DNA from: Tepidiformaceae bacterium
GTDB lineage: Bacteria; Chloroflexota; Dehalococcoidia; Tepidiformales; Tepidiformaceae
Length of the DNA stretch: 64,000 nucleotides
NCBI GenBank assembly: GCA_965202995.1
Contig: OZ241861.1
Location: forward strand, 483,299 to 547,298
Reading direction: 5' to 3'
The translations under genes and the position numbers were made by a program. Positions within the stretch are counted from its first letter, which is position 1, and each line of letters begins with the position of its first letter. The notes beneath the pieces are model-generated. The model did not search any database. It was not told the DNA's origin and saw only the letters and a list, made by a program, of their open reading frames with translations. Positions 1,726 through 48,152 of the stretch are shown here, piece after piece.

Positions 1726-3903
1726 CTACGGGACGGGTTCGGCGACCTTGCGCACGTTCACGGGGATGGCGCTCATGACGGGGATGCCCGTGATGGGATC
1801 GTAGTCGCGCCGCGTGTCGGTGAGGCGGCCCGTGTTCGCCCCCAGCTCGCGCACGCGCGCGTCCTCCGCGGGCGCGTCGCCCCAGGCGTGCGCCATGGAG
1901 ACGACGCCCGCGCGCACGTCGGGGGCGGGTTCGACCACGCCGTAGATGGCCGCGCGCGCCGACGCGATCTCGACCACGTCCCCCGCCTCCAGCCCCAGCT
2001 CGGCGAGGTCCAGCGGGTTCATGTAGGCGGGATTGCCCGTGTTCGCGTACCGGCGCATGAGCCGCGGCAGGTCGCGCCCGGAGGAGTTGTAGGACTCCAG
2101 CAGGCGGCGGCTCACGAGGCGGTGCGTGAAGTCCTCGCCCGCGCGGTAGCCGCCGCCCTCGAAGTGCGGCTCGGCGCGCACGGCGGCCAGCTCGGCCAGC
2201 ATCTCCGCGCGGCCCACGTCGAGCCGCGGCGCGCCCGCGCGCTTCGGCGCCACGCGGATGTCGTCGTCCGCGAAGATATGCCCGTGCGGATGCTTCTTCA
2301 CCTCCGCCAGCGGGATGCGCGAGCCCTCGCACATCCGCTCCAGCAGCTCCGACGTGGTCGGCTTCGCGTCGAGGTCCACCTCGCCCCAGGGCATGCGCAG
2401 GGGCGTGCGCATGCGGTTGGCCAGCCCCCAGAAGAACTCCCACTCCTCGATCACGTCCGAGCCCGCGGGCGGATCGACCAGCTTCGGGCCGTACTGCGCG
2501 TAGGGCGCGGGATAGCCCTGGGCGAAGCCGAAGACGCCGGAGAGCGCCTCGTTCGGGAGCGTCGTGTCCTCCCGCTCGAGCGAGAGCCTGGGCGCGATCA
2601 CGTAGTGCGCCAGCTTGGCCGTGGCCGACAGCTTGATGTCGAGCGTGACCAGCAGGTCGAGCGCTTGCAGCGCCTCGTGGGTGCGCAGCTGATCGGGCCA
2701 GGCCGCCATCGGGTTCGAGCCGACGCAGATGAGCGCGCGGATGCGCCCCTCGCCCGGCGTCAGGATCTCCTCCGCCAGCGCGCTCGTGGGCGGCCCGATG
2801 GGCGTGATGGGCAGGTCGCGGATACGCAGCTTCTCGCGCGACTCCCAGTCCGTGCCCTCCTCATACGCCTGCGCGCGGTACTCCTTCGGCTTGCGCAGCA
2901 CGGGCGGGTTGGGCACGCGCTCGCCCTCGCGCAGCCAGCGCCCGCAGACCGTGTTGATGGCGTTGATGAGGTACTCGGTGACGTTGGCGTGGGGCGCGAA
3001 ATCGGGGCCCGTGCCGCTCGTCGCGGAGCCGCGCGCCCCGCCCGCGAAGATGCGCGCCGCGCGCTCCACCAGCGCCGCCGGAACGCCCGCGCGCTCCTCC
3101 ACGTAGTCCGGCGTGAACGGCTCCACCGCCTCACGCAGCGCCTCCACGCCCTTCACGTTGGCGGCGATGAAGTCGCCGTCCACCAGCCCCTCGCCGAGGA
3201 TGACGCGCAGGATGCCCGCCAGCAGCGTGGGATCCTCGCCCGGCTTCACCTGCAGGAACACGTCCGCCTTCTCCGCCGCCTCCGTGCGCCGCGGGTCGAT
3301 CACGATCAGCTTCAGGCCGCGCTGTTTCGCGCGGTGCAGCCGCTTCGCCGGGTTGTACTGGGGGATGCCGCCCCACATGGAGATGGTCGGGTTCGCGCCG
3401 ATCAGCATCCACACGTCGGCGTCGTCGAACATCTGCGGGCCCGCGCCCCAGTTGCCGTGGTAGGCGCGCGCGATGGGCTTGGCGGGCTGGTCGATGGTGC
3501 CCCCGGAGTAGGTCATGTTCGAGCCGATGCCCGCCATGAACGCCCCCGTGAACTGCCCCGACGACGGGTAGGAGAAGCCGTAGGTGCCGCTGAAGGTGGC
3601 CACCGCGCGGGGGCCGTGTTCGGCGATGATGGCGGACAGCCGCTCCGCCACCTCGTCGATGGCGCGCTGGTGGGGGATGGGGCCGAACGTGCCGTCGGGG
3701 GCGCGCTTCTGCGAATGGAGCAGGCGGTCGGGATGGTAGTGCTGTTCCGGCAGCTGCCGCCCCTTGATGCAGGTGAAGCCCTCGTACATGGGGTTCTTGG
3801 CGTCGCCGCGCACCTTGATCGCGCGCCCGTCCTTGATGTCCACCTCGATGCCGCAGAAGGCATGGCAGAAGCGGCAGAAGGTCTGCTTCGTCTCGACGAC
3901 CAT
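1726..3903 (-). CDS. molybdopterin-dependent oxidoreductase (DMSO-reductase/formate-dehydrogenase superfamily catalytic subunit)
   Basis: This is the C-terminal 725 codons of ORF-track 1726..4770. Start ATG 3903 (MVVETKQTFCRFCHAFCGIEV...) has GGAGGG at 3916..3911 upstream. The N-terminal C-x2-C-x3-C...C cluster is typical of the MopB 4Fe-4S domain. The rest of the ORF upstream runs antisense through the low-GC islet. Confidence 0.85.
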   Translation of the reverse strand: MVVETKQTFCRFCHAFCGIEVDIKDGRAIKVRGDAKNPMYEGFTCIKGRQLPEQHYHPDRLLHSQKRAPDGTFGPIPHQRAIDEVAERLSAIIAEHGPRAVATFSGTYGFSYPSSGQFTGAFMAGIGSNMTYSGGTIDQPAKPIARAYHGNWGAGPQMFDDADVWMLIGANPTISMWGGIPQYNPAKRLHRAKQRGLKLIVIDPRRTEAAEKADVFLQVKPGEDPTLLAGILRVILGEGLVDGDFIAANVKGVEALREAVEPFTPDYVEERAGVPAALVERAARIFAGGARGSATSGTGPDFAPHANVTEYLINAINTVCGRWLREGERVPNPPVLRKPKEYRAQAYEEGTDWESREKLRIRDLPITPIGPPTSALAEEILTPGEGRIRALICVGSNPMAAWPDQLRTHEALQALDLLVTLDIKLSATAKLAHYVIAPRLSLEREDTTLPNEALSGVFGFAQGYPAPYAQYGPKLVDPPAGSDVIEEWEFFWGLANRMRTPLRMPWGEVDLDAKPTTSELLERMCEGSRIPLAEVKKHPHGHIFADDDIRVAPKRAGAPRLDVGRAEMLAELAAVRAEPHFEGGGYRAGEDFTHRLVSRRLLESYNSSGRDLPRLMRRYANTGNPAYMNPLDLAELGLEAGDVVEIASARAAIYGVVEPAPDVRAGVVSMAHAWGDAPAEDARVRELGANTGRLTDTRRDYDPITGIPVMSAIPVNVRKVAEPVP

Positions 3904-3927
3904 CGGGGTGCCCTCCGGGCGCGCGTG

Positions 3928-3969
3928 CCGCGCCCCCGCACGATAGCGGAGCGCGATCGCCCCCGCCAG
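3928..3969. repeat. 42-bp direct repeat, left copy (flanks the low-GC islet)
   Basis: ccgcgcccccgcacgatagcggagcgcgatcgcccccgccag is repeated at 5787..5828 with one substitution (c/t). Confidence 0.9.
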
Positions 3970-3999
3970 CGCCGCTAGCCAGATTGGGGCAGACCCGGT

Positions 4000-4028
4000 T
4001 TGCACGCTGGGATCCAAGGTGCTAGCAT
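4000..4028 (+). promoter_or_regulatory. sigma70-like promoter for the DUF262-HEPN operon
   Basis: TTGCAC (4000-4005), 17-nt spacer, TAGCAT (4023-4028). GAGGAG at 4049-4054 precedes ATG 4057. Confidence 0.45.
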
Positions 4029-4056
4029 GACCAGCGACCGCACCTTGTGAGGAGCC

Positions 4057-5205
4057 ATGACGAGCACCGCCCCCTCCCAGCCCCCGCCCGACGAATCGAT
4101 GGACGAGCTCGTTATCGACGAGTCTATCAAGAGTGATCGCGAGCTGGACGAAATTCCGGGGATCGAGCGATACGAGATCGGCTTCTATGGAGCCGACTAT
4201 CCTGTTGATGCTCTGTACAAGCGCCTGACTTCCGCAGAGTCCGCTGCTGAGGGGGATATTTTCATCCCTGATTTTCAGCGCGGCTATATCTGGAGGAAAA
4301 AGCAGGCTGACCGATTCATTGAATCGCTCCTCTTGGGGCTCCCTGTCCCGGGAATTTTCCTCTCCACTGATGCAACCAATCGACGTTTGGTTATCGATGG
4401 AGGCCAACGGCTGAGGACGATCCAGTCCTTCATGGATGGTACGTTCAACGGGCGCGATTATTTGCTTGGAAAAGGAATCCATCGTGATTTCGAAGGCAAG
4501 GGTTATCGTGATTTGCATCCGACTGATCGTCGCCGATTCGACGATGCGATCATTCATGCAACTATCGTCCGCCAAGAAAAGCCTGAAGGAGACAATCGCT
4601 CTCTTCTCTATATTTTTGAGAGGCTGAATACTGGAGGCACTGCTGCTCAACCGCATGAAATCCGTCGAAGCCTTTGGGGAGGGGGTCTGAACGACCTGAT
4701 CAAGTCTTTGGATGAGAACCAGCAATGGCGAGAAGTGTACGGACAGCGTTCCCAACACATGAAAGACCAAGAGTTGATTCTCCGATTTTTCGCCCTGTAT
4801 CTAGACGAGGACCGTTATGGAAAGCGGAAAGAGGAGCGCATGATGAAAGATTTTCTAACGTCGTTCATGGCGCGTAATCGCGACATTGACGTTACTATTG
4901 CGAGCCACCTTGAAGAAGTTTTTTCTGCGGCCATTTCCCTTGTCAATGAATCTCTTGGCAGGACTGCATTCCGTCGCGGAAGAGGTCTGAACGCAGCAGT
5001 TTTCGATTCCGTGATGGTCGCCCTTGCACACACACAAGCCGAGAGTAATCTCCCTAATGCCCAAGAATTCAAAAGGTGCTATGAAGGCCTGCTCGCAAAT
5101 ATTCGATTCGAAGAGGTTACCAGCAGTAGGACTTCACACGAGGCCAATGTTAAAGAACGTCTGCGTTTAGCACGCGAGGCGTTCACTGAATCGGACAGTC
5201 AGTAG
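4057..5205 (+). CDS. DUF262 (ParB-like NTPase/nuclease fold) domain protein, 382 aa, with no recognisable DUF1524/HNH half
   Basis: ORF-track 4057..5205. DUF262 signature IPDFQRGYIWRKKQADRFIESLLLGLPVPGIFL ... VIDGGQRLRTIQSF. The gene is low in G+C (33/60 and 26/60 in lines 4141 and 4561). Confidence 0.8.
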   Translation: MTSTAPSQPPPDESMDELVIDESIKSDRELDEIPGIERYEIGFYGADYPVDALYKRLTSAESAAEGDIFIPDFQRGYIWRKKQADRFIESLLLGLPVPGIFLSTDATNRRLVIDGGQRLRTIQSFMDGTFNGRDYLLGKGIHRDFEGKGYRDLHPTDRRRFDDAIIHATIVRQEKPEGDNRSLLYIFERLNTGGTAAQPHEIRRSLWGGGLNDLIKSLDENQQWREVYGQRSQHMKDQELILRFFALYLDEDRYGKRKEERMMKDFLTSFMARNRDIDVTIASHLEEVFSAAISLVNESLGRTAFRRGRGLNAAVFDSVMVALAHTQAESNLPNAQEFKRCYEGLLANIRFEEVTSSRTSHEANVKERLRLAREAFTESDSQ

Positions 5206-5709
5206 ATGGATTCTCCAGAGATGCCATCGGAGCCTGAGCAGATTGACGCGGCCTTTGATCGTGCCGAGCGTATTGCCCTGAGCAACGAACCTTGGATGGA
5301 TGAGGTTTTGTCCGACTATGCTCACCACCTCTGCATCTTGGCGACGGGATTTCTGGAGCGAGCCGTTGTGCGGGTGTTTCAAGAGTACGTGGATGCTCAC
5401 GGAGATTCTCGGATCGGCAACTACGTGGATCAGACGTTCCAGCGTGAGGGAAGCATGCGAGCGCGAAACATCCTCAGGATCGCTGGTGAATTTGACGAAG
5501 ACTGGAAGAACCGCTTGGATAGTGAGATGACGGAAGAACACAGAATGGCGATTGGAAACCTGTACAGCCACCGAAACAACATTGCACATGGTAGGGACAG
5601 CGACCTGACCTACCGCCAAGTGCGCGACGCTTACAATTCAATCACAGAGACCATCGGTTTTCTCGAGGAGATTGTCGAGTCAACTCCTTCGCGTTATCCC
5701 CGTGCCTAG
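5206..5709 (+). CDS. small HEPN-like protein (Rx4H motif), 167 aa
   Basis: ATG 5206 directly abuts the upstream TAG (5203-5205). R-N-N-I-A-H at codons 123-128 (nt 5572-5589) within LYSHRNNIAHG matches the HEPN Rx4-6H catalytic motif. Low G+C, like the upstream gene. Confidence 0.65.
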   Translation: MDSPEMPSEPEQIDAAFDRAERIALSNEPWMDEVLSDYAHHLCILATGFLERAVVRVFQEYVDAHGDSRIGNYVDQTFQREGSMRARNILRIAGEFDEDWKNRLDSEMTEEHRMAIGNLYSHRNNIAHGRDSDLTYRQVRDAYNSITETIGFLEEIVESTPSRYPRA

Positions 5710-5713
5710 GTGC

Positions 5714-5780
5714 GCGCGTCCTCCGAAGGCCACCCAGTGCAGCGCGCTGTGCAGCAGGTGCCGGAAACCCGCGTTCGCGT
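5714..5780 (-). pseudogene. remnant of the 3' end of a ThuA-like gene (paralogue of 8201..9022)
   Basis: 5714-5780 aligns to 8221-8286 with 61 of 66 positions identical plus a 1-nt indel, by hand alignment. It encodes ...ANAGFRHLLHSALHWVA, compared with ANAGFRRLLHNALHWVA in the intact gene. The indel shifts the frame, and the upstream 90% of the gene is absent. Confidence 0.7.
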
Positions 5781-5786
5781 CGTAGT

Positions 5787-5828
5787 CCGCGCCCCCGCAC
5801 GATAGCGGAGCGTGATCGCCCCCGCCAG
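5787..5828. repeat. 42-bp direct repeat, right copy
   Basis: ccgcgcccccgcacgatagcggagcgtgatcgcccccgccag matches 3928..3969 at 41 of 42 positions. Confidence 0.9.
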
Positions 5829-5868
5829 ACGGTAGACTGCGGCCACCCGACGACGGAGGCGGCCCGAC

Positions 5869-6429
5869 ATGGGCGAACGGGACGGCGCGGATCGCCCGCT
5901 GCCCAACAGCTACTGGGTCATCCCGGGACGTTTCGCGGCTGGCGAATACCCCGGCGCGAAGGATCCCCGCGAGGCCGCCGAGCGACTGCGGACCCTGCTG
6001 CGCGCGGGCATCGACCACTTCATCGACCTGACCGAAGCGCGGGATGGACTGGAGCCGTACGCCGAAGCGCTGGCGGATGAGGCCCGCGCACTCGGCACGA
6101 GCGCCACGCATGAGCGGCATCCAATCGTCGATGTGAGCGTGCCGCGCAACCCGGCGGAGATGGTCGCCATCCTCGACGCCATCGACCGCGCGCTGAGCGA
6201 GGGACGCAGCGTGTACGCTCACTGCTGGGGCGGCGTCGGGCGGACCGGCGCCGTCGTCGGCTGCTGGCTCGTGCGGCACGGCAGGACGGGCGACGAGGCC
6301 CTCGCCCAGGTTGCCGAATGGTGGCGGGGCGCGGAGAAGGCGGACCGCCTGCCCCACTCCCCCCAGACGCGCGAGCAACGCACTTATGTCCGCGAGTGGG
6401 CGGAACCGCCGCCGGAGGAGTCCCGATGA
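5869..6429 (+). CDS. Cys-based protein-tyrosine/dual-specificity phosphatase-like protein
   Basis: ORF-track 5869..6429. The CX5R active-site loop is HCWGGVGRTG. GGAGG at 5855-5859 and TAGACT at 5833-5838 lie upstream. Confidence 0.75.
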   Translation: MGERDGADRPLPNSYWVIPGRFAAGEYPGAKDPREAAERLRTLLRAGIDHFIDLTEARDGLEPYAEALADEARALGTSATHERHPIVDVSVPRNPAEMVAILDAIDRALSEGRSVYAHCWGGVGRTGAVVGCWLVRHGRTGDEALAQVAEWWRGAEKADRLPHSPQTREQRTYVREWAEPPPEESR

Positions 6430-7601
6430 ACGCCGAACCCTTCACCATCGCCATCCCCGACGCGAAGCTGGCCGACCTGCGCGGGCGGCTGGAGCGCGTC
6501 AACTGGGCGCCCGACTTCGCCAACGACGACTGGGCCTACGGCGTGAACGGCGCCTACCTGCGCGAACTCGCCGAACACTGGCTCCGCGGCTACGACTGGC
6601 GCGCGCACGAGGCGGAGATGAACCGCCTGCCCAACTTCCGCGTCGAAATCGAGGGCGCGCCCATCCACTTCGTCCACGTGCGCGGGCGGGGGCCGGACCC
6701 GATCCCGCTCATCCTGTCGCACGGCTGGCCGTGGACCTTCTGGGACCTGCGCCACGTGATCGGCCCCCTCAGCGACCCCGCGGCCCACGGCGGCGATCCC
6801 GCCGACGCCTTCGACGTGGTCGTGCCCTCGCTGCCGGGCTTCGGCTTCTCCACGCCGCTGACCGTGCCCGGCGTCAACTTCTGGCGCACGGCGGACCTCT
6901 GGGACGCGCTCATGCGCGGCGTGCTGGGCTACGAGCGCTACGGCGCGCAGGGCGGCGACTGGGGCGCGCTCGTCACCAGCCAGCTGGGTCACCGCCACGC
7001 GGAGCACGTGATCGGCATCCACCTCACGGACGCGATCCGGCTGGACCTGTTCAGCCACGACCGGCCCTGGGTGCTCGGCGACCCGGGGCTGGCGACGCTG
7101 CCCGCGGGCGAGGCGCGACGGGCGCAGCTGGCGCGCATGCGCCTCTACTCCTCGCACGTGGCCGTGCAGACGCTGGACCCGCAGACGCTGGCCTTCATGG
7201 CGCACGATTCGCCCATCGGCCTCTGCGCCTGGATTCTCGAACGGCGGCGCAACTGGGGCGATACCGGCGGCGACGTGGAATCGCGCTTCCCGAAGGACGA
7301 CCTGCTCACGACGATGATGCTCTACTGGGCCACGGACGCCTTCGTCACCTCGGTGCGCTACTACTTCGAGGCGGCCTGGAACCAGTGGCGGCCGCACCAC
7401 GACCGCGCGCCCGTGGTCGAGGCCCCCACGGGCGTCACCTTCCACGGGCCGGACGCCCCGGCGGAGCCGGGCGAGGCGCTGCGGCGCTACTGGAACCTCG
7501 TGCACTGGGACCGCCATCCGGCGGGCGGCCATTTCGCCCCGGCGGAGGAGCCGGAGGCCATCGTGCGCGGCATCCGCGCCACCTTCCGCGGGCTGCGCTA
7601 G
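6426..7601 (+). CDS. epoxide hydrolase (alpha/beta hydrolase with N-terminal EH domain)
   Basis: ATG 6426 overlaps the upstream stop (ATGA) and is in frame with ORF-track 6318..7601. MNAEPFTIAIPDAKLADLRGRLERVNWAP ... ILSHGWPWTFWD ... PSLPGFGFS is typical of microsomal-type epoxide hydrolases. Confidence 0.8.
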   Translation: MNAEPFTIAIPDAKLADLRGRLERVNWAPDFANDDWAYGVNGAYLRELAEHWLRGYDWRAHEAEMNRLPNFRVEIEGAPIHFVHVRGRGPDPIPLILSHGWPWTFWDLRHVIGPLSDPAAHGGDPADAFDVVVPSLPGFGFSTPLTVPGVNFWRTADLWDALMRGVLGYERYGAQGGDWGALVTSQLGHRHAEHVIGIHLTDAIRLDLFSHDRPWVLGDPGLATLPAGEARRAQLARMRLYSSHVAVQTLDPQTLAFMAHDSPIGLCAWILERRRNWGDTGGDVESRFPKDDLLTTMMLYWATDAFVTSVRYYFEAAWNQWRPHHDRAPVVEAPTGVTFHGPDAPAEPGEALRRYWNLVHWDRHPAGGHFAPAEEPEAIVRGIRATFRGLR

Positions 7602-7621
7602 CCCCTCGCCAGATACAGCTA

Positions 7622-7951
7622 TCAGGTGGTGAAACGGCTCGGGTTCTCCGGCATCAGAACCTCGCCATCGTGAAGGAGCCACTTGGGGTCCGGCCTGCCC
7701 GATGCCCCCAGGCTGCCGTCCTGCCGGAGATACTGGTGGACGACGGCGACCTGCCGTCCGTTGGCGTCGAAGTACCCGACGGCCTGACTACGAGTGCAAA
7801 ACGGCTCACCGGCGCCGGGCGCGGACGGGTGTTTGTCCGTCTTGAGCTGTATAGTGAGCCTGCCAGCTTCGACCGCCTCCACGAAACGAAGCTCGTTGAA
7901 GAGCCGACGCAGACGGGCGGCGGGAACGTAGCGACGCGGAGGGCTGGCCAT
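7622..7951 (-). CDS. hypothetical protein, 109 aa, with atypical codon usage
   Basis: ORF-track 7622..7951. Many A/T-ending codons sit in an otherwise GC3-rich genome. I recognise no motif. The segment HQYLRQDGSLGASGRPDPKWL looks conserved. Confidence 0.45.
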   Translation of the reverse strand: MASPPRRYVPAARLRRLFNELRFVEAVEAGRLTIQLKTDKHPSAPGAGEPFCTRSQAVGYFDANGRQVAVVHQYLRQDGSLGASGRPDPKWLLHDGEVLMPENPSRFTT

Positions 7952-8204
7952 GCCGGAAGCGTACTCCCTTGAGGCCGTGCGGGCGCGGATTCAGCGGTGC
8001 GCCGAGGGCGACGGCAGCCCCGCCGAGCTCGACGACTGGCTCTTCCCCCTCCTCTGGCCGGACGAGGGCGACGCCGACGCGCGCGAACTCGCGTGGAGCG
8101 CCGAACTCCTGCTCATGGAGCTGGGCCGCGGACACTGGACCGAAGCGGCGTTCCGGGAGCAGCTGGCGCTGCTCATCCAGCCCCGCGCCGTCGCCGGACG
8201 CTAG
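7950..8204 (+). CDS. hypothetical protein, 84 aa
   Basis: ORF-track 7950..8204 has strong GC3 bias typical of native coding sequence. Its ATG overlaps the divergent ATG of 7622..7951 within CATG (7949-7952). Its stop shares CTAG (8201-8204) with the convergent ThuA-like gene. Confidence 0.5.
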   Translation: MPEAYSLEAVRARIQRCAEGDGSPAELDDWLFPLLWPDEGDADARELAWSAELLLMELGRGHWTEAAFREQLALLIQPRAVAGR

Positions 8205-9022
8205 CCCCGCGCCCAGGCCCGCGCGTCCTCCGACGCCACCCAGTGCAGCGCGTTGTGCAGCAGACGCCGGAAGCCCGCGTTCGCGTAGCAGTTCGGGCCG
8301 TCCCCGATCTGCATCGCCACCACCGGCGCGTTCCCGCTCTTCTTCGCCCACACCACCAGGTCGCTCCCCTCCGGATGGTCCCACTCCGCCTGCTCGGCGG
8401 CGGGCGCCAGCGGCGGCGGATTGAAGTTCTCCCGCACCATCGGGTAGTCCGTGCGCATCAGCGGCAGGATGCCCGGCTGCGTCTCGAACGCCTTCGACGT
8501 CAGGTACAGCTCGTCCTCGATCTCGAACGGCTCGACGCCCTCCAGCACGGGGTGGCCGATGGCCGCGGGATCGGGCGAGACGACGCCGCGCGGGTTGCCC
8601 CGCGGATCGTGCGCGCCGCCGCGATAGCCCGAGCCCGGCGTCGGCTCGCCGAACACCTCGCCTTGCGTGAGCAGGAACGACGTGCCGCTCACGTCGCGCC
8701 AGCCCGCCCACGCCGGCCACTGCACGATGGCGTGGTTGAGCATGACGATGCCCGTGCCGCGCTCCAGCAGCGCCGCGATGCTGCGCTGGTACTCCTCCGG
8801 CGCGGGCGCGAAGCTGGCCCCCCCGTCCGGACTCTCCGTGCCCCACATGTCGTAGAAGAGCACGGCCTCGTACGCCGCCGCGTTCTCCGGCCGCAGCATC
8901 ACCTGCGCCGCCGGCTGCTCCACCTGCGTCGTCTGCAGCTCCGGATTCTCGTCGAAGATGGCGTAGAAGCCGTTGTAGTCGAAGGGATGCCCCTTCGTCA
9001 CCACCAGCGTGTTCACGGCCAT
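8201..9022 (-). CDS. ThuA-domain (trehalose-utilisation-like) protein
   Basis: This is the C-terminal 273 codons of ORF-track 8201..9907. Start ATG 9022 (MAVNTLVVTKGHPFDYN...) has GGAAGGA at 9037..9031. The C-terminal ANAGFRRLLHNALHWV is typical of ThuA-like proteins. Confidence 0.65.
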   Translation of the reverse strand: MAVNTLVVTKGHPFDYNGFYAIFDENPELQTTQVEQPAAQVMLRPENAAAYEAVLFYDMWGTESPDGGASFAPAPEEYQRSIAALLERGTGIVMLNHAIVQWPAWAGWRDVSGTSFLLTQGEVFGEPTPGSGYRGGAHDPRGNPRGVVSPDPAAIGHPVLEGVEPFEIEDELYLTSKAFETQPGILPLMRTDYPMVRENFNPPPLAPAAEQAEWDHPEGSDLVVWAKKSGNAPVVAMQIGDGPNCYANAGFRRLLHNALHWVASEDARAWARG

Positions 9023-9921: not shown

Positions 9922-9927
9922 TATACT
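9922..9927 (+). promoter_or_regulatory. -10-like hexamer TATACT immediately upstream of hsdR (possible leaderless mRNA)
   Basis: TATACT at 9922-9927 and ATG at 9937, with no Shine-Dalgarno sequence between them. It is the only AT-rich hexamer in the divergent intergenic region. Confidence 0.35.
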
Positions 9928-9936
9928 GCTCCGCCC

Positions 9937-12279
9937 ATGCTCAACGAGGCCGATACCCGCGCCAAGCTGGTCGATCCCGTCCTGCGCGGGCGCGGCTGGG
10001 TGGAAGGGCTGATCAGGCGCGAGCAGACGCCCGGCCGCATCGACATCGTGGGCGCGGGCGGACGGCGCGGACGCGGGCGCTCCACCGACTACCTCCTCCA
10101 TGCCCGCGTGGACGGCAAGCGCACGCTCCCCATCGCCGTGCTGGAGGCGAAAGCCGAGGAGTACGCGCCCGACCACGGCCTCGAACAGGCGAAGCGCGAC
10201 GCGCGCCTCCACCACGTGCCCTTCGCCTTCGCCACCAACGGCCACCTGTTCGTCGAGCACGAGTTCGCCACGGGCCGCACGACCGCCCCCGCGCCGCTGA
10301 CCGAATTCCCCGGCTGGGACGACTTGCTCCGGCGCTACCTGAAGCAGCGGGAGATCGACCTCACGCGCAAGGAGGCCGCGCCGCTCCTGAAGCCCGCGCG
10401 CGCGCACGACCGCCCCTACCAGTACGCCGCCGTGCGCGCCGTGCTCGAACGCATCGCGCGCGGAGAGAAGCGCCCCCGCGCCCTGCTCTCCCTCGCCACG
10501 GGCACGGGCAAGACGCGCATCGCCGTCAGCCTGCTGCGCGCCCTGGACCGCAGCGGCCAACTCCGCCGCGCCCTCTTCGTCTGCGACCGCAAGGAGCTGC
10601 GCGATCAGGCCCTCGGCGCGCTCCACAACGAATTCAAGGCCGACGCCGCCAAGGCCACCACGCGCAACCCCGAGAAGAACGCCCGCGTCATCGTCGCCAC
10701 CTACCAGACGCTGGGCATCGACGACGAGGGCGGCGACGACTCCTACCTCTCGCGCCACTACCCGGAGAACTACTTCAGCCACATCATCATCGACGAGTGC
10801 CACCGCTCCGCCTGGGGCAAGTGGCGCGCCGTGCTCGACCGCAACCCCGACGCCGTCCACATCGGCCTCACCGCCACGCCCCGCACCTGGGAGCGCGTCG
10901 GCGATCCCGACGACATCGAGACCGAGGACGACGACGCGATCACGCGCGACAACCACCAGTACTTCGGCGAACCCGTCTACGAGTACTCCATCGCCGACGC
11001 CATGGACGACGGCTGGCTCGCCGCCATGAAGCTCGTGCGCGCCGAAATCATCACCGCCGGGCAGCGCGAGCGCGAGGAAGGCGTCAGGAGCGGCGAACTC
11101 GACCCTGATCGCATCCGCGACGCTCGCACGGGCGCGCCCGCGGGCGTCAGCGACATGCCCGAAATCTACCGGGCCGCTTCCATCGAACAGCGCCTCCGCA
11201 TCGAGGAGCGCGTCGAGGAGATGTGCCGCGACCTCTTCCAGCGCCTCCTCGAATCGGGCGGACCGCGCCAGAAGACGCTCATCTTCTGCGCCGGCGACGC
11301 CCATGCCGACCGCGTCGCCGCCGAAATGGGCAACCTCTACGCCGAATGGGCCGATCGCGCGGACGAGCGCCCCGTCGATCCCTACGCCTTCAAGTGCACC
11401 GCCCAGGGCGGGGCCGAGCTGCTCTCCGACTTCAAGGGCGCCGCCTCCCGCGCCTTCGTCGCCTGCACCGTCGACCTCATCACCACCGGCGTCGACGTGC
11501 CCCGCCTCCAGAACGTCGTCTGGTTCCGCTACCTCAAGTCCCCCATCCTCTTCCACCAGATGCTGGGACGCGCCACCCGCATCCACGCCGAAAGCGGCAA
11601 GCTCCACTTCACCGCCTACGACTACACCAACGCCAGCCGCCTGCTCGACGCATCCCTCGCGCAGCGCCCCGAGACCGAGCGCGAACGCAAGCCCGACGGC
11701 GAGCGCGAGGAGCGCGACCCGCCCCGCATCTTCGAGGCCGAGGGCGTCGAGGTCCGCATCGAGCCCGAGGGCGTGGTTGTCATGGTTCCCGAAGGCGGTA
11801 CACTGCGCCGCGTGACGCTCGACGACTACCGCGCCGGCATCGCCGAACGCATCCTCGCCGAAGCGGCCGGCATCGACGCCTTCCGCGAACGCTGGATCGC
11901 GCCCGAGGAACGCCGCGCCATGCTCGATAGCCTGCCGCAGGGCTCGGCCAGCGCCGACATCCTGCGCGCCGCCAGCGACATCGACGAGGGCTGCGACGGC
12001 TACGACGTGCTCGCCAGCGCCGCCTTCGGCGAGACGCCCCGCCCGCGCCTCGAACGCGCCGACCGCTTCGAGGAGACGGAGGAGCGCGGCATCCTGCGCG
12101 CCATCGCCCGCCAGTTCGGCTACGGCGGCACGGACGCCCTCGAAAGCAGCGGCCTCTTCCAGACCCCGGGTGTGCGAGCGGCGGGCGGCCTCGCCGCGCT
12201 CGAACCGGAAGCCGCGAACCGCTTGCTCGACCTGAAGCGCCGCGTGCTCGCCACCGACGCGGAGTGGCGCGACGCATGA
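9937..12279 (+). CDS. hsdR: type I restriction enzyme R subunit (EcoEI-like C-terminal domain)
   Basis: ATG 9937 is in frame with ORF-track 9025..12279. N-terminus MLNEADTRAKLVDPVL. Helicase motifs SLATGTGKT, IIIDECHR and LTATP are present, and the C-terminus is EcoEI_R_C-like. Confidence 0.9.
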   Translation: MLNEADTRAKLVDPVLRGRGWVEGLIRREQTPGRIDIVGAGGRRGRGRSTDYLLHARVDGKRTLPIAVLEAKAEEYAPDHGLEQAKRDARLHHVPFAFATNGHLFVEHEFATGRTTAPAPLTEFPGWDDLLRRYLKQREIDLTRKEAAPLLKPARAHDRPYQYAAVRAVLERIARGEKRPRALLSLATGTGKTRIAVSLLRALDRSGQLRRALFVCDRKELRDQALGALHNEFKADAAKATTRNPEKNARVIVATYQTLGIDDEGGDDSYLSRHYPENYFSHIIIDECHRSAWGKWRAVLDRNPDAVHIGLTATPRTWERVGDPDDIETEDDDAITRDNHQYFGEPVYEYSIADAMDDGWLAAMKLVRAEIITAGQREREEGVRSGELDPDRIRDARTGAPAGVSDMPEIYRAASIEQRLRIEERVEEMCRDLFQRLLESGGPRQKTLIFCAGDAHADRVAAEMGNLYAEWADRADERPVDPYAFKCTAQGGAELLSDFKGAASRAFVACTVDLITTGVDVPRLQNVVWFRYLKSPILFHQMLGRATRIHAESGKLHFTAYDYTNASRLLDASLAQRPETERERKPDGEREERDPPRIFEAEGVEVRIEPEGVVVMVPEGGTLRRVTLDDYRAGIAERILAEAAGIDAFRERWIAPEERRAMLDSLPQGSASADILRAASDIDEGCDGYDVLASAAFGETPRPRLERADRFEETEERGILRAIARQFGYGGTDALESSGLFQTPGVRAAGGLAALEPEAANRLLDLKRRVLATDAEWRDA

Positions 12280-12887
12280 ACCCGGGCGACCCGCTCCCCG
12301 ACGGCTGGCGCTGGACCACGCTGGGGGAGTGCTGTGTTCAGGAACGAAAAGCGATCACCAGCGATAGACCCGAGTATACGGAGATGCCTTACCTGGGGCT
12401 GGAACATATTGAAGGAAGCACCGGGAGGATTCTGGTCAGCGAAAAGGCGGCGCGCGGATCTGAATCCACGAGCAACAACTTTTGCTTCACTCCTGAACAC
12501 GTTCTCTACGGGAAACTCCGTCCGTACCTCAACAAGGTGGCCCTGCCCGATTTTTCGGGGCGTTGCAGCACGGAGATTATCCCGCTCCGCCCTGTCGATA
12601 TGGACCGCGGCTTTCTGGCATGGTTCCTTCGCAGGAGCGATACGGTTGAGTACGCCATGCGGGGCAAGACTGGTTCACGAATGCCTCGCGCATCCATGAA
12701 GGAACTCCTGCTGCTCCCCATCCCCCTGCCGCCGCTGGCCGAGCAGCGCCGCATCGTGGCCGCGCTCGAAACGCGACTCGCCGCCGCAGAGCGCGCCCGC
12801 CACGCTGCCCTCTCCCAGCTCAATGCGCTGGAGGCGATGCCAGCCGCCCTGCTGAGGAAAGTGTTTGAACGCGAGGCCAAAATCTGA
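12276..12887 (+). CDS. hsdS: type I R-M specificity subunit, proximal half (TRD1 plus central conserved region), ending at an in-frame TGA
   Basis: ATG 12276 overlaps the hsdR stop (ATGA). PDGWRWTTLGE ... LPIPLPPLAEQRRIVAALE ... is the typical HsdS TRD and conserved helix. Stop TGA 12885-12887. Confidence 0.85.
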   Translation: MNPGDPLPDGWRWTTLGECCVQERKAITSDRPEYTEMPYLGLEHIEGSTGRILVSEKAARGSESTSNNFCFTPEHVLYGKLRPYLNKVALPDFSGRCSTEIIPLRPVDMDRGFLAWFLRRSDTVEYAMRGKTGSRMPRASMKELLLLPIPLPPLAEQRRIVAALETRLAAAERARHAALSQLNALEAMPAALLRKVFEREAKI

Positions 12888-12901
12888 TTTTGGCCTCGCG
12901 T
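12869..12901. other. perfect 15-bp inverted repeat (3-nt loop) containing the hsdS-interrupting stop codon
   Basis: acgcgaggccaaaat / ctg / attttggcctcgcgt. TGA 12885-12887 spans the loop and the first stem base. It is followed by the tandem 9-mers tcgaaattt x2 (12901-12918) and a T-rich stretch. Confidence 0.85.
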
Positions 12902-13001
12902 CGAAATTTTCGAAATTTGTCGTGTTTTCACCGGTGGTCCCGCTCCACAAGGCAATCAGTACTTTGGGGCGTCCGGTCCGCTCTTCTTTCGCGTTCGGGA
13001 C

Positions 13002-13487
13002 TTGTCGGTGAGTGGTCGGACCACAGCGCTGGCAACAGCCCGTGATCGACTCTCCCCGTCTGCGTTGGATACGCTCAAACTGGTTCCCGTCCAGCCGAAC
13101 ACACTGGTCTTCCCGAAGAGCGGAGCCGCAATTGCCACGAATAACCGAGCCCTCACCACAGTGCCCGGATACTTGGTCAGTCACCTCATGGCGCTTGAAG
13201 CCGGAGATTCAGTCCTGCCACTCTGGCTGTACTATGCATTCTGCACACTGGACATGACCGATTTCTCGGATAATACAGGGTACCCAAGCCTCCGCAAAAC
13301 AACGGTCGAGAGGATTCAAATCCCTCTCCCGCCCATCGACGAACAGCGCGCGATCATCACCGAACTCGAACGGGAAATGGCGGCCACGGAGCAGGCGCGT
13401 ACGGCGGCGCGCGAGCGGCTGGCGCTTGCCGAAGCGCTGCCGGGTGCTATCCTGCGGCGCGCTTTCGCGCCCGGAGCCTCCGCATGA
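13002..13487 (+). CDS. hsdS: type I R-M specificity subunit, distal half (TRD2 plus C-terminal conserved region); possibly an untranslated pseudogene fragment
   Basis: ORF-track 13002..13487 (TTG start). The same frame is open from 12888, directly after the TGA, and reads FWPRVEIFEICRVFTGGPAPQGNQYFGASGPLFFRVRDL, a typical TRD start. IQIPLPPIDEQRAIITELE forms the distal conserved helix. The stop overlaps the hsdM ATG. Confidence 0.7.
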   Translation: MSVSGRTTALATARDRLSPSALDTLKLVPVQPNTLVFPKSGAAIATNNRALTTVPGYLVSHLMALEAGDSVLPLWLYYAFCTLDMTDFSDNTGYPSLRKTTVERIQIPLPPIDEQRAIITELEREMAATEQARTAARERLALAEALPGAILRRAFAPGASA

Positions 13488-15022
13488 CCTCGGCCATCGC
13501 CTCCCAGTCCTCGCTCGACGCGCGCATCAAGACCGTGTGCGACGTGCTGCGCCGCTCGAACTGCGCTGGCGCGCTCCAGTACGTGCCGGAGCTGACGTGG
13601 CTGCTTTTCCTGCGCTTCCTCGACGAGCGCGAGGAACGGGAGGCGCGGGACGCGGCGGCGCTGGGGCGGCGGTACGAGGCATCGATCCAGGAGCCCTTCC
13701 GCTGGCGCGACTGGGCCGCGCCCGACGGCGTGAAGCGCAACCTGCTGCAGCATGGGGCGGGGAACTCCGTTTTCGCGTTTCTCGAGGGCGACCTGCTGCC
13801 GTACCTCCACGAGCTGGGGAACAACGGGGGCACGCCCCGCCAGCGGCTCATCGGCCAGATTCTCTCCAGCGTGGACGGCACGCGCGTGGACACGGAGCGC
13901 AACTTCTACGACGTGGTGGACCTCGTGCACGAGATTCGGTCGGGCGAGATGGACGACCAGCACCTGTTCCCGCTGTCGGGGGCCTACGAGGGCCTGCTGC
14001 TCTCGATGGGGGAGAAGAACAACGACGGCGGGCAGTTCTTCACGCCGCGCGAGGTGGTGCGGGCGATGGTGCGCGTGGTCGCCCCGACGGTGGGCGAGAC
14101 GGTGTTCGACCCGTGCTGCGGGACGGGCGGCTTCCTGGCGCAGGCCTTCGAGCACATGCGCGCGAACCTGCCCCCGGAGGCGACGGGCGAGGCGCTGGAG
14201 CGGCTGAGCGGCGAGACGTTCTACGGCACGGAGAAGGACACCCTCGTCTACCCGATCGCGCTGGCCAACCTCGTGCTCCACGGCATCGACGAGCCGCACA
14301 TCCAGCACGCCAACACGCTCACGCGCGCGGAGGAGTACGGCGGGCTCTTCGAGGACGCGCCGGACCAGTTCGACGTGATCCTCACGAATCCCCCGTTCGG
14401 CGGCAAGGAGGGCGCGGACGCGCAGAACCACTTCGACTACCCGACGTCCTCGACGCAGGTGCTCTTCCTGCAGGAGGTGATCGAGAGCCTGAAGCGGGGC
14501 GGGCGCGCGGGCTTCGTGGTGGACGAGGGCCTGCTCTTCCGCACGAGCGAGCGGGCCTTCGTGCAGACGAAGCGCAAGCTGCTGGACGAGTGCGACCTGT
14601 ACTGCGTGGTGAGCCTCGCGCCGGGCGTGTTCACCTCGGCCGGTTCGGGCGTGAAGAGCAACCTGCTGTTCTTCAACAAGGGGCAGCCGACGGAGCGCAT
14701 CTGGTACTACGAACTGTTCCCGCCGGAGTGGACCGACCGGAAGGGGCAGACGCGGCCGGGCACGCGCTTCACCAAGAAGTACCCGCTGACGCTGGCGCAC
14801 TTCGAGGAGTTCTTCGCGCTGCTGCCGGAGCGGGCCGATTCGGAGCGCTCGTGGACGGTGACGCGGGAGCAGGTGGAGGCGAACGGCTACGACCTGAAGG
14901 CGGTCAACCCGCACCGCCCGGACGACTCGGACACGCGCACGCCGGAGGAGCTGCTGGCGGAGATCGCGGGCCACGGGCGGGAGCTGGAGTCGGCGCTCGC
15001 GGAGCTGCGGTCGGCCTTGTAG
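13484..15022 (+). CDS. hsdM: type I R-M N6-adenine DNA methyltransferase subunit
   Basis: ORF-track 13484..15022. It has an ATGA overlap with hsdS. Motifs FDPCCGTGGFL (SAM binding) and NPPFGG (catalytic) are present. Confidence 0.92.
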   Translation: MTSAIASQSSLDARIKTVCDVLRRSNCAGALQYVPELTWLLFLRFLDEREEREARDAAALGRRYEASIQEPFRWRDWAAPDGVKRNLLQHGAGNSVFAFLEGDLLPYLHELGNNGGTPRQRLIGQILSSVDGTRVDTERNFYDVVDLVHEIRSGEMDDQHLFPLSGAYEGLLLSMGEKNNDGGQFFTPREVVRAMVRVVAPTVGETVFDPCCGTGGFLAQAFEHMRANLPPEATGEALERLSGETFYGTEKDTLVYPIALANLVLHGIDEPHIQHANTLTRAEEYGGLFEDAPDQFDVILTNPPFGGKEGADAQNHFDYPTSSTQVLFLQEVIESLKRGGRAGFVVDEGLLFRTSERAFVQTKRKLLDECDLYCVVSLAPGVFTSAGSGVKSNLLFFNKGQPTERIWYYELFPPEWTDRKGQTRPGTRFTKKYPLTLAHFEEFFALLPERADSERSWTVTREQVEANGYDLKAVNPHRPDDSDTRTPEELLAEIAGHGRELESALAELRSAL

Positions 15023-15085
15023 CGTTGCGGGGCGCGGCGCGGGCGCGCACGATGGGCGCCACCATCACCAGGGGAGGCGCGCCCC

Positions 15086-15616
15086 ATGAGCACCACGCCG
15101 CTGGACATCCTCCGCACGGGCCTCGAGTCGATGCACGGGATGCTCGACCAGGCGCTCGGCGACATGACGCTGGAGCACCTCAACTTCCGCCCCCGCGAGG
15201 GCGGCCTCAGCCCCTTCTTCAGCCTCTGGCACTACGTCCGCACCGAGGACAACATCGTCAACTACGTCGTGCGGGGGCGGCCCACGGTGTGGCTCGAGGG
15301 CGGCTACGACGGGCGCCTCGGGCTGCACCGCACGGCGCAGGGCACGGGCATGTCGGACGCGGACGCGAAGGCGCTCGCGCTCACCGACCTGGACGGCTGG
15401 CGCGAGTACCAGCCGCGCGTGTGGCGGGCCACGGCGGCGTACCTGGGGGAGCTGTCGGCGGACGAGTTCGACGCGCGCACGGTGACGATCAAGCCGCTGG
15501 GGGAGATGTCGCTCTGGCAGGCGCTGAACGGCGTGTGCCTGAGCCACGGCTACCGTCACGTGGGCGAGATCGAGTACGCGCGGGGCGTGATGGGGCTCGG
15601 CGGGCTCACCGTCTGA
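15086..15616 (+). CDS. DinB-family (DinB_2/DUF664-like) metal-dependent protein
   Basis: ORF-track 15086..15616. The pattern is that of a four-helix DinB fold, with H-containing helices (FSLWHYVRTED ... SHGYRHVGEIEY). Confidence 0.6.
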   Translation: MSTTPLDILRTGLESMHGMLDQALGDMTLEHLNFRPREGGLSPFFSLWHYVRTEDNIVNYVVRGRPTVWLEGGYDGRLGLHRTAQGTGMSDADAKALALTDLDGWREYQPRVWRATAAYLGELSADEFDARTVTIKPLGEMSLWQALNGVCLSHGYRHVGEIEYARGVMGLGGLTV

Positions 15617-15708
15617 GGCGGCGTCTGGCGCGCGGGCGCGGCGCTCGTTAAGCTGCCGCTCGCATCCCGGCGCGGCGCGGGCCGCGCACGCAACGCAGGA
15701 GTGGCGTG

Positions 15709-16485
15709 ATGAAGCTGGAAGGCAAGGTCGCCGCCGTCACGGGCGGCAGCCGCGGCATCGGGCGCGGCATCGTGGAGGCGTTCCTCGCGGAGGGCGCCAG
15801 CGTCGTCCTCAACGGGCGCAGCGCGGAGAAGGGCGAGCGCGCGCTGGCGGAGATGGGGGCGGGCGAGCGCGCCCACTTCCTGGCCGGCGACGTGACGCGG
15901 GAGGAGACGATCAGGGGGCTGGTGGACGGCGCCGTCGCGCGCTACGGGCGCATCGACATCCTCGTGAACAACGCGGGCGGCAGCTCGGGCTTCGCGCCCG
16001 TGGCGCAGATGGAGAACGAGGCCTGGGACCACACCATCCGCTGGAACCTGTCGGCCACCTTCTGGGGCATCAAGCACGCCTTCCGCCACATGCTCCCCCA
16101 GGAGAGCGGGCGCATCATCAACGTCTCCTCGCTGGAGGGGAAGCACGGCAAGCCCGGCATCGCCGCCTACGTGGCCGCCAAGCACGCCATCAACGGCCTC
16201 ACGAAGAGCGCGGCGCAGGAGGTGGGTACGACGGGCATCACCGTGAACGCCATCTGCCCGGGGCTGATCGAGACGGACATCGTGCGCGAGAGCGGGGCCG
16301 CCGCCGCCGCCTCCATGGGCCTCACCTACGACGAGATGGTGCAGCAGTTCGCCGACGAGTCCGCCATCAAGCGCATGAACACCGTCGAGGAGGTCGGCGC
16401 CGTGGCCGTGCTCCTCGCCTCCGACGTGGGCGCGGGCATCACGGGCGCGCTCTGGTCGGTGGACGGCGGCACCGCGGCCTACTAG
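15709..16485 (+). CDS. SDR-family oxidoreductase (FabG/3-hydroxybutyrate dehydrogenase-like)
   Basis: ATG 15709 lies 7 nt after AGGAG (15697-15701). TGGSRGIG, NNAG and YVAAKHA motifs are present. Confidence 0.85.
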   Translation: MKLEGKVAAVTGGSRGIGRGIVEAFLAEGASVVLNGRSAEKGERALAEMGAGERAHFLAGDVTREETIRGLVDGAVARYGRIDILVNNAGGSSGFAPVAQMENEAWDHTIRWNLSATFWGIKHAFRHMLPQESGRIINVSSLEGKHGKPGIAAYVAAKHAINGLTKSAAQEVGTTGITVNAICPGLIETDIVRESGAAAAASMGLTYDEMVQQFADESAIKRMNTVEEVGAVAVLLASDVGAGITGALWSVDGGTAAY

Positions 16486-16495
16486 GAGCGCGAAC

Positions 16496-18229: not shown

Positions 18230-18411
18230 GGGGCGGGGGCGGCGCGCGGCTTGGCATCGCGGGCCCCTGCGGGCCAGCGACGGCGGCGGGGCTGACGGAG
18301 CTGGCGCTGTACAACGTGGAGGGCGGGCACGGACGCCTGGGCGGGCGCGGGCTACCCACGGGGGACTGATACACTGGTTCCAGCGAAACGGCTCATCGGA
18401 GGCGCGGAGCG

Positions 18412-19101
18412 ATGAAAACCGTCACGGAAGCCCGAACGAACCTGTCCTTCGAGGGCATCTACGAGGCGCCGGAGGCGGCGCGATACCTGAAGGCGGCCGA
18501 CCGCGGGGCGAAGGTCTACCCGGTCCGCTCGGCCACCATTATCCGCTGGATTCGTCAGGGACTCTCCTCGCTCGATCTTGTCGATACTCCCGGCGCGGAG
18601 CTGGTGATCACCTTCGAGGATCTGGTTTCGATGCGCGTGATTGCCGCCCTGCGTGCGGCGGACATCCAGTGGAAGGAGATCCGCGCGACGGAGCGCTGGT
18701 TGCGGAACGAACTTGGCATCCCCCGCCCGTTCGCGTCGGAGTCCCTCTGGGCGGGACGGGGGCAGGTGTTCGGCGACTGGACGAGCCAGCTGCTGGCCGC
18801 GAGCCTGCACGGGCAGGCGGCGTTCGAGATGCTGCACCAGTACCTGATTCCCGTGCATGGCCTGAGCTTCGACCAGGCGTCCGGCATGGCGAATTCCTGG
18901 GAGGCGGCGCCGTCCATCCTGCTGGCGCCGGAAATCCAGTTCGGGGCGCCCTGCATCAAGGGGACGCGCATCCCGGCGCGAACCATCGCGGGGATGATCG
19001 ACGCCGGAGATTCCAGGGAATGGGTGATGGGGGAGTTCGGAATCTCGAAAGAGGAGGCGGATGCCGCCTGTGAATGGGAACATCGTCTCCGAGCCGCATA
19101 A
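18412..19101 (+). CDS. DUF433-domain protein (putative antitoxin-like) with an N-terminal extension
   Basis: ORF-track 18412..19101. The C-terminal IQFGAPCIKGTRIPARTIAGMIDAGDSREWVMGEFGISKEE matches the DUF433 pattern. Confidence 0.65.
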   Translation: MKTVTEARTNLSFEGIYEAPEAARYLKAADRGAKVYPVRSATIIRWIRQGLSSLDLVDTPGAELVITFEDLVSMRVIAALRAADIQWKEIRATERWLRNELGIPRPFASESLWAGRGQVFGDWTSQLLAASLHGQAAFEMLHQYLIPVHGLSFDQASGMANSWEAAPSILLAPEIQFGAPCIKGTRIPARTIAGMIDAGDSREWVMGEFGISKEEADAACEWEHRLRAA

Positions 19102-19105
19102 CCCC

Positions 19106-19174
19106 TTGTTCCTGCTTGATGAGTCGCTGGTCCCGGCCGTCGCTCGCGCACTGAATGCGGTTGGCTACCGGGAG
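19106..19174 (+). pseudogene. truncated DUF5615 (PIN-like toxin) remnant
   Basis: An in-frame TTG at 19106 gives (M)FLLDESLVPAVARALNAVGY, the characteristic DUF5615 N-terminus. After about 22 codons the frame becomes Arg-rich nonsense and runs into the convergent VOC gene. Confidence 0.5.
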
Positions 19175-19214
19175 AGGCTGCGGAGCGGTCAACGGCGAGG
19201 GGCGAGGAGCGGGG

Positions 19215-47900: not shown

Positions 47901-48040
47901 CGGCGGCGGCGTCCCCGCCACGGGAACGGCACCGGGCGTCGTCGTCGGGGCCGCTGGCCGTCTCGGGACGGTTCGGGTCCGGGCGTTCGCGTGCGAACCG
48001 GAGCGAAGCGGTCGAGAGACCCCCACGATTGAGGTCCCTC

Positions 48041-48152
48041 CCACGCCTGCGAGGTTAGCTGACGGGCTGCGACCGGAGGTGTCGCCCGCGGATGCGGTTC
48101 GCCCCGATGTGGCGGTTCCCCCGCTCCCCCGAAGGGGATTCGGCGGCAGCGG
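48041..48152 (-). promoter_or_regulatory. candidate c-di-AMP riboswitch (ydaO/kimA class)
   Basis: The minus-strand RNA reads CGCCGAAUCC (48145..48136), CCCC-UUCG-GGGG hairpin (48137..48126), AGCGGGGGAACC (48125..48114), UCGGGGCGAACC (48107..48096), GGGCGAC, and GUCAGCUAACCUCGCAGGCG (48063..48044). These match, in order, the blocks I recall from Bacillus subtilis ydaO: CGCUUAAUC, hairpin, AGCGGGGGACCC, UUGGGGUGAAUCC, GGGCGA, GUCAGCUAACCUCGUAAGCG. Confidence 0.6.

Follow-up and report, generated by a model that had tools for sequence, protein, structure and literature searches.

A low-G+C islet at positions 3970-5786 of the 64,000-nucleotide stretch analysed here (contig OZ241861.1 of a Tepidiformaceae bacterium, Chloroflexota; the whole stretch is termed the window) carries two abutting open reading frames (ORFs), ORF1 and ORF2, encoding a DUF262 protein and a small HEPN protein, and this pair is, judged by sequence, a distant but genuine member of the PD-T4-2 defence family. 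The islet carries a known type of system and not a new class, and we put at roughly 0.7 the probability that it is a PD-T4-2-type anti-phage cassette, in which a DNA-sensing nucleoside-triphosphatase (NTPase), ORF1, switches on a HEPN ribonuclease (RNase), ORF2, such that infection is aborted.

A two-gene cassette of the PD-T4-2 family

PD-T4-2 was recovered in a functional selection of the E. coli pangenome and, as a cloned pair as well as in its native strain, protects E. coli against T4 (Vassallo et al., 2022; PMC9519451): it is entered as 'DUF262, HEPN', validated, in Supplementary Table S1 of that study, and its deletion in the native strain ECOR65 restores T4 plaquing. The accompanying HHpred results match protein 2A to PF03235 (99.7%) and protein 2B to PF18735 (97.8%), followed by MAE_28990 and Swt1 (PMC9519451). 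The window pair is built in the same way: a DUF262 protein of ~350-385 aa without DUF1524 comes first and is followed, adjacent and co-directional, by a small same-strand HEPN protein of the RiboL-PSP type that shares the secondary Pfam affinities of 2B (RiboL-PSP, MAE_28990, Swt1), and both PD-T4-2 and the window pair lie on mobile or variable DNA.

Because DUF262 followed by RiboL-PSP-HEPN is the architecture of PD-T4-2, the original prediction, which had ranked the islet as an uncharacterised system and the strongest candidate for a novel one in the window, fails on this point: the same architecture is validated against T4 in E. coli (PMC9519451), is represented in PADLOC and has been reviewed. 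The prediction had also stated that such neighbourhoods had been noted by comparative genomics without experimental characterisation. The first half of that statement stands, as the 2013 HEPN survey lists 'Ribo L-PSP-HEPN ... operon with ParB' and describes a conserved Rx4-6H motif (Anantharaman et al., 2013), and the second half is overtaken by the T4 experiments. In reviews, PD-T4-2 appears beside Menshen and Dazbog among the DUF262 systems that lack DUF1524 and is termed largely uncharacterised, and we found no mechanistic study of it in the literature.

As comparators, we used three annotated E. coli pairs (L084, L085 and L086) in place of the ECOR65 founder (QOYX01000002, RCO39066.1): one from an IncX1 plasmid (365 and 180 aa), one from a 3.9-kb plasmid (373 and 191 aa) and one from a P2-like prophage (384 and 211 aa), all labelled in RefSeq as 'DUF262/GmrSD domain' plus 'HEPN domain-containing protein'. 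Against the PADLOC models, ORF1 matched NsnA (E = 3.3e-66; model positions 43-381 of 385) and PD-T4-2_A (E = 1.4e-48; 56-362 of 363), and the E. coli A proteins, like ORF1, scored lower on PD-T4-2_A (7e-42 to 2e-55) than on NsnA (1e-65 to 1e-68). The E. coli B proteins ranged on PD-T4-2_B from 1.4e-8 (P2-like prophage) through 4.4e-4 to no match at all (IncX1), and the three PD-T4-2_B models found only 19, 6 and 3 matches (28 in total, best 1.6e-9) among 142 representatives of the ORF2 family. Aligned by hhalign, this family reached 99.2% with the P2-prophage B protein and 99.0% and 95.4% with the other two, the RNxxAHG site being aligned, and BLASTP against the prophage pair gave 31% identity for A (E = 7e-51) and 24% for B (E = 2e-8).

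Cumulatively, the hhalign, BLASTP and PADLOC results indicate, at the level of sequence, membership of the PD-T4-2 family at a considerable distance: identity to the E. coli prophage homologues is ~31% for A and 24% for B, ORF2 lies outside the PADLOC B models, and the host is a high-G+C Chloroflexota bacterium instead of E. coli. Of the two subunits, B is the fast-evolving partner, to which the current B models are insensitive.

ORF1 is a DUF262 protein without a fused nuclease

ORF1 (4057-5205, plus strand) encodes a PD-T4-2_A/NsnA-like protein of 382 aa, as supported by Pfam, PADLOC, AlphaFold2 (AF2) and Foldseek. In Pfam, it matched GmrSD_N/DUF262 (PF03235, E = 8.4e-26, aa 66-206), in agreement with the domain originally predicted, and no other family; NCBIfam had no match for either ORF1 or ORF2. 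Conservation was scored in 34 homologues and follows the three motifs of the domain. In motif I (FQRGYIW, 4273-4293; QRxxxW as defined in PMC12065111), F73, Q74, R75 and W79 are invariant; in motif II (DGGQR, 4396-4410), which is the predicted nucleoside triphosphate (NTP)-binding centre by the role that the literature gives to DGxQR in NTP binding and hydrolysis, D114, G115, Q117 and R118 are invariant; and in motif III (FERLN, 4615-4629; FxxxN), the invariant residues are R189 and N191, with F187 conserved to at least 90%.

In the AF2 model (predicted local distance difference test, pLDDT, 83), a disordered tail (aa 1-38) precedes an alpha/beta domain, and the C-terminal half is entirely helical; these parts correspond to an acidic tail (aa 1-38), a ParB-like DUF262 NTPase (~aa 40-175) and a helical ParBDB-like domain (~aa 181-380). 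The best Foldseek match of the model is BrxU (7p9k, probability 1.0), followed by ParB/Noc CTPase domains; a sequence search of the PDB recovered only the short DUF262 motif of BrxU and other DUF262 entries. The tail (window 4057-4170; DESMDELVIDESIKSDRELDE) is strongly acidic, with pLDDT <50, and its DE/SD pattern is kept among close homologues; it could be a putative autoinhibitory DNA mimic or a docking peptide.

ORF1 thus resembles GmrSD, BrxU and SspE in combining a DUF262 NTPase bearing QRxxxW, DGxQR and FxxxN with a helical middle domain, and BrxU is its best structural match, but it lacks their DUF1524 His-Me DNase: Pfam has no match to such a domain in ORF1, the C-terminus is modelled as helices throughout, and none of the C-terminal histidines is invariant across the 34 homologues. 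On this count the original prediction, which had seen no DUF1524 half, was borne out. Because that domain is not found in ORF1, and none is encoded in an adjacent gene, an ordinary GmrSD is ruled out. The likely effector is instead a separate RNase, so that RNA, in place of modified DNA, is the predicted target.

The same comparison can be turned the other way, to make ORF1 itself the nuclease of a DNA-targeting, restriction-like system and ORF2 an accessory or regulatory nucleotide-binding HEPN protein. The solved structure closest to ORF1 is, after all, that of a type IV enzyme, and loci with ORF1 alone exist; the 2013 survey, moreover, names the neighbour 'ParB nuclease' and places HEPN families in restriction-modification (R-M) contexts, and ParB-fold domains have been called DNases. 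We regard this arrangement as improbable, since in the characterised DUF262 proteins (GmrSD, BrxU, SspE) DUF262 is the NTPase or sensor and cleavage is by DUF1524, which is not found here, and since ORF2 retains a strongly conserved Rx4H signature.

ORF2 is a stand-alone HEPN protein

ORF2 (5206-5709, plus strand; 167 aa) is a stand-alone RiboL-PSP-type HEPN protein and a predicted RNase effector (PD-T4-2_B-like), as assigned from Pfam, AF2, Foldseek and hhalign. Its match to HEPN_RiboL-PSP (PF18735, E = 1.4e-11) reached 45.1 bits against a gathering cut-off of 28.4, with weaker Pfam matches to Swt1 and MAE_28990. The motif RNNIAH (Rx4H, R123 to H128; 5572-5589), which is followed by a glycine, is conserved in the 142 family representatives, with H128 and G129 invariant and R123, I126 and A127 at least 90% conserved, and RxxxxHG occurs in 67/72 neighbours of ORF1 homologues. 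The HEPN assignment of the original prediction is thereby confirmed at the level of sequence, and conservation of the full signature points to a predicted active RNase.

The AF2 model of ORF2 (pLDDT 94.7) is all-helical, with seven helices. The top natural proteins retrieved with it by Foldseek are HEPN proteins (2hsb, 2q00, 6m6w, 7bxo, 1ylm and 1jog; among them AF_0298, SSO HEPN, HepT, YutE and HI0074), at weak scores (E 0.5-1.2, template modelling score, TM, 0.37-0.58) and probabilities of 0.6-0.89, but 0.35 for 1jog. A PDB sequence search with the ORF2 family returned nothing significant. Only four relatives appeared in a word-based homologue search; the family became visible by exhaustive HMMER search, as 1027 clusters at 50% identity, almost all of 150-165 aa. 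Within the RiboL-PSP-HEPN family, ORF2 passes the PF18735 gathering score and stands alone, lacking the fusion to endoRNase L-PSP from which the family takes its name. HepT/MntA, the HEPN-MNT toxin-antitoxin system, was considered and ruled out, as the partner here is DUF262 and Pfam detects no MNT domain.

The two genes are found together across genomes

Co-occurrence was assessed with an ORF1 profile in a scan of GTDB, each species being represented by one genome; of at least 494 relatives, the best 80 loci were taken, of which 78 were informative, the remaining two ending too early. An ORF2 homologue lay directly downstream on the same strand in 69/78 loci, most often with a 4-nt overlap (gap of -4 nt in 49 loci, -1 in five and 0 in three), and in the reverse direction 6/6 informative ORF2-family contigs had a DUF262 gene or a fragment of one upstream. 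ORF1 and ORF2 are co-transcribed and almost always found together, and their translational coupling, which the original prediction had read from their abutting ends, is upheld. These relatives occur in Chloroflexota, Acidobacteriota, Cyanobacteriota, Spirochaetia, Rhodothermales, Planctomycetes, Nitrospiraceae, Burkholderiales and one Thermoplasmata archaeon, and the G+C content of the cassette is more than 5 points below that of its flanks in 59/69 loci (median difference -10 points). Among the 90%-identity cluster representatives searched, more than 7,000 ORF1 homologues were found at E<=0.001.

The pairing is not symmetrical: ORF1 lacks its partner in 9/78 loci, and in three loci a truncated ORF2 lies beside an intact ORF1, whereas all informative ORF2 contigs have ORF1 upstream. 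This asymmetry is expected of a toxin-antitoxin-like addiction module, because a toxin cannot persist without its antitoxin, and it brings in the main rival explanation, by which ORF2 is a constitutively toxic HEPN RNase, ORF1 its protein antitoxin, and the role of the pair the stabilisation of carrier DNA, with defence at most a side effect. Many HEPN proteins, such as HepT, are indeed toxins of toxin-antitoxin systems, and the E. coli settings suit such a role: homologous pairs form nearly the sole cargo of 3.9-kb plasmids and lie beside the replication gene on IncX1 conjugative plasmids (the third setting being a prophage, between the CI and integrase genes). However, phage resistance was the trait for which the E. 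coli homologue was selected, and the native strain becomes sensitive when it is deleted; 382 aa with invariant NTPase motifs far exceeds what an antitoxin needs, and in one locus (L088) ORF1 is apparently disrupted beside an intact ORF2, which could be an assembly error. We therefore hold addiction as the principal role to be unlikely; it is compatible with defence, and the two are not mutually exclusive.

L088 belongs with L087 to a related cassette (ORF2-family representative P0125) that is bracketed by IS3-family transposase genes; the DUF262 gene of L088 is apparently split and its HEPN gene intact, subject to the same reservation about assembly.

The cassette lacks the partners that define Menshen

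The high score of ORF1 on NsnA calls for a comparison with Menshen (NsnABC; Millman et al., 2022; Li et al., 2025). The alignment of ORF1 to the NsnA model runs from end to end, and ORF1 shares the layout of NsnA, a proposed DNA sensor of ParB-DUF262 plus ParBDB architecture. Menshen, however, also has the NsnB ATPase and NsnC (inPIN plus toxin), and the window pair has neither, only its single HEPN partner: ORF1 is followed by the 167-aa HEPN gene, the right copy of a direct repeat and a DSP-phosphatase gene. Because NsnB and NsnC are absent downstream, membership of Menshen is ruled out.

One could still take the cassette for a decaying, non-functional remnant of a transferred element, or for a Menshen system after the loss of NsnB and NsnC, given that NsnA is the best PADLOC match of ORF1 and that the cassette sits in a rearranged, indel-rich region. 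Yet neither ORF is truncated and every catalytic motif is kept, the two-gene arrangement is conserved in E. coli as well as in the 69/78 loci, the PD-T4-2-like A proteins of E. coli likewise score best on NsnA, and the pair adjoins neither an ATPase gene nor an NsnC-like gene, intact or as a remnant. Decay of either kind is thus highly improbable.

The islet and its probable exchange between near-identical genomes

The islet has a G+C content of 53.4% (72.3% for the window). The counts quoted in the original prediction are exact: G+C falls from 44 per 60 bases at 3601 to 33 at 4141 and 26 at 4561, and background is regained with 43 at 5701. Similarly, the G+C content at third codon positions is 0.54 in ORF1 and 0.62 in ORF2, versus 0.85-0.97 in five neighbouring genes. 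The predicted ORF sizes and the TAG|ATG junction with zero gap (ORF1 ending at 5205, ORF2 starting at 5206) are all present in the sequence, as are FQRGYIW, VIDGGQRLRTI and RNNIAH. The flanking genes have conserved synteny and 83-89% amino acid identity with Tepidiformaceae (Chloroflexota) metagenome-assembled genomes, and the cassette between them looks horizontally acquired.

Positions 3970-5786 coincide exactly with the stretch enclosed by two copies of a 42-nt direct repeat (41/42 identical), of which the left (3928-3969) is intergenic, upstream of a minus-strand molybdopterin oxidoreductase gene, and the right occupies 5787-5828; the window contains these two copies, versus none expected in shuffled sequence. 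At the right end of the inserted segment, after ORF2, lies a 68-nt minus-strand piece of a thuA-like gene, from its 3' end (5713-5780), which is 91% identical to the 3' end of the resident thuA gene (8220-8286); tblastn gave 73% over 22 aa. Jointly, the simplest reading of these features is that the cassette, together with its thuA stub, was moved or imported into an intergenic region with duplication of 42-53 nt of target, and that cassette alleles have since been exchanged by recombination.

Evidence on the exchange comes from a sister genome, represented by a 1.09-Mb contig of the European Nucleotide Archive (ENA; L002). Its flanks are 96-100% identical to the window, and it carries a cassette (9922-11712) at the same site, flanked by the same repeat, there 53 nt long. 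The two cassettes are only 54-82% identical in 150-nt bins, apart from a 93%-identical patch in the 3' part of ORF2, and the proteins share 69% (ORF1) and 74-78% (ORF2) identity. Such divergent alleles between near-identical flanks suggest that alleles were replaced, or recombined into mosaics, at a defence locus. In the relatives L004 and L005, the cassette is found elsewhere in the same neighbourhood, between an epoxide-hydrolase gene and the thuA gene, which is the position of window 7611-8198; in the window, this position is held by a 588-bp segment, absent from L002, whose ORFs have no Pfam match.

A self-mobile element, such as an integrative element or insertion sequence, was considered and rejected, because the segment encodes no recombinase (two ORFs, Pfam scan; neither integrase nor transposase) and has direct repeats only, with no terminal inverted repeats. 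A search of JGI metagenome contigs with the repeat core (CGCACGATAGCGGAGCGYGATC) gave 0 matches, and hence neither an empty site nor other cargo between the repeats. In short-read assemblies, the cassette appears as isolated Logan/ENA contigs of ~1.8-1.9 kb, including L001 (1889 bp), which has identical 30-nt ends at a spacing of 1859 nt, and the contigs of 1817-1893 bp that contain P0001, P0003 and P0004. We do not take contigs of the L001 type for a circular form of the cassette and read them instead as loops of the de Bruijn graph that stem from the flanking repeat.

The leader of the cassette (3970-4056, plus strand) contains TTGCAC (4000-4005), a 17-nt spacer and TAGCAT (4023-4028), the latter preceded by TGC and so extended -10-like, as well as a GAGGAG box (4049-4054) only 2 nt from the ATG of ORF1. 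The hexamers and the GAGGAG box that had been named as the cassette's own promoter and Shine-Dalgarno sequence are thus physically present, but a promoter is not demonstrated above chance: the hexamers match the sigma-70 consensus at only 7/12 positions, and a sigma-70 promoter scan of 3850-5950 passed no site. A terminator scan of the same interval gave terminator-like sites at chance level, inside ORF1, and an Rfam scan of 3500-6500 gave nothing meaningful, neither an RNA antitoxin nor a riboswitch. The leader is ~90% identical in L002 although the coding DNA there is 54-82% identical, and an element resembling TGCTATCAT lies upstream of the ORF1 homologue in L004; this conservation lends weak support to promoter function, which is a plausible reading of the leader.

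Neighbourhood

The cassette lies in a defence-type context: homologues are carried by E. coli plasmids, by P2-like prophages and by temperate phages, and 4.3 kb away there is a type I R-M system. The latter comprises hsdR (9997-12279), two half-size hsdS genes (12264-12887 and 13002-13487) and hsdM (13484-15022), and in L002 this block (window 9997-15022) is replaced at 14727-19517 by a type ISP restriction-modification enzyme of 1596 aa. Directly after the right repeat, at 5869-6429, is the gene for a conflict-type DSP protein phosphatase (HCWGGVGRTG; PF22785 'polymorphic toxin system' phosphatase, E = 1.1e-15), which is deleted in L002 except for its last ~50 nt. Farther away, the window contains a second low-G+C islet (48000-51001), with 1-kb G+C values of 0.43-0.59 against a mean of 0.72; its minus-strand ORF at 48212-51001 (929 aa, scanned as a 928-residue translation) has no Pfam and no PADLOC match and encodes an orphan large protein on apparently foreign DNA.

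Proposed mechanism

In GmrSD, BrxU and SspE, a nuclease is activated by DUF262, which acts as a sensor driven by NTP, and we propose a comparable switch for the window pair. A dimer of ORF1 would bind DNA, with NTP binding or hydrolysis as the switch, as in those enzymes, and recognition of phage DNA, possibly modified, would change the conformation of ORF1. This change would release or activate a HEPN dimer of ORF2, which would then cleave RNA (tRNA, rRNA or mRNA), stopping translation and so aborting the infection. The separate HEPN RNase would thereby fill the place of the His-Me DNase that is fused to GmrSD-type enzymes. The original prediction had likewise coupled DNA sensing to RNA cleavage, which is a reasonable hypothesis. 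PrrC and RloC, anticodon nucleases in which an NTPase module controls a latent HEPN-type RNase against T4-like phages, offer a functional analogy only: in PrrC, the NTPase is fused to the nuclease and restrained by a type I R-M enzyme, and the window pair is split.

Several points weigh against this account. ORF2 itself matches none of the three PADLOC PD-T4-2_B models at E<=1, so that a rule-based tool would probably not call a PD-T4-2 system here, and ORF1 scores higher on NsnA of Menshen than on PD-T4-2_A. The structural resemblance of ORF2 to solved HEPN domains has weak statistics (E 0.5-0.9 and TM 0.43-0.58, within the ranges given above), and ORF1, given its nine solo loci, may have an activity of its own. 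The order from sensor to effector, the RNA target and the abortive outcome are drawn from GmrSD, BrxU and SspE and from general HEPN biology.

Tentatively, and with somewhat less than even confidence, we further suggest that PD-T4-2-type systems are a putative split, RNA-targeting counterpart of type IV restriction, and that the Chloroflexota clade is a fast-evolving subtype that has gone unrecognised. If the first part holds, a GmrSD-like ParB-fold NTPase would recognise foreign, perhaps modified, DNA and pass the signal to a separate HEPN RNase instead of a DNase. The second part starts from the B subunits of the clade, which current defence-finder models miss, and from its alleles, which are swapped at one site in near-identical genomes.

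Implications for the family

With this locus, a defence family that has been validated only in E. coli gains a distant member from a high-G+C Chloroflexota bacterium. What remains new about it lies in how the family works, in the under-detection of the HEPN subunit and in the swap of alleles between two almost identical genomes. The cassette behaves in nature as an allele that can be exchanged, within a variable region rich in defence genes. Relatives are very widely distributed, with at least 494 among GTDB species representatives. The HEPN subunit is so variable that most members escape the current PADLOC models, and the number of such systems is therefore probably underestimated. The value of the locus lies in the comparative material that it offers on how DUF262 sensors control HEPN RNases.

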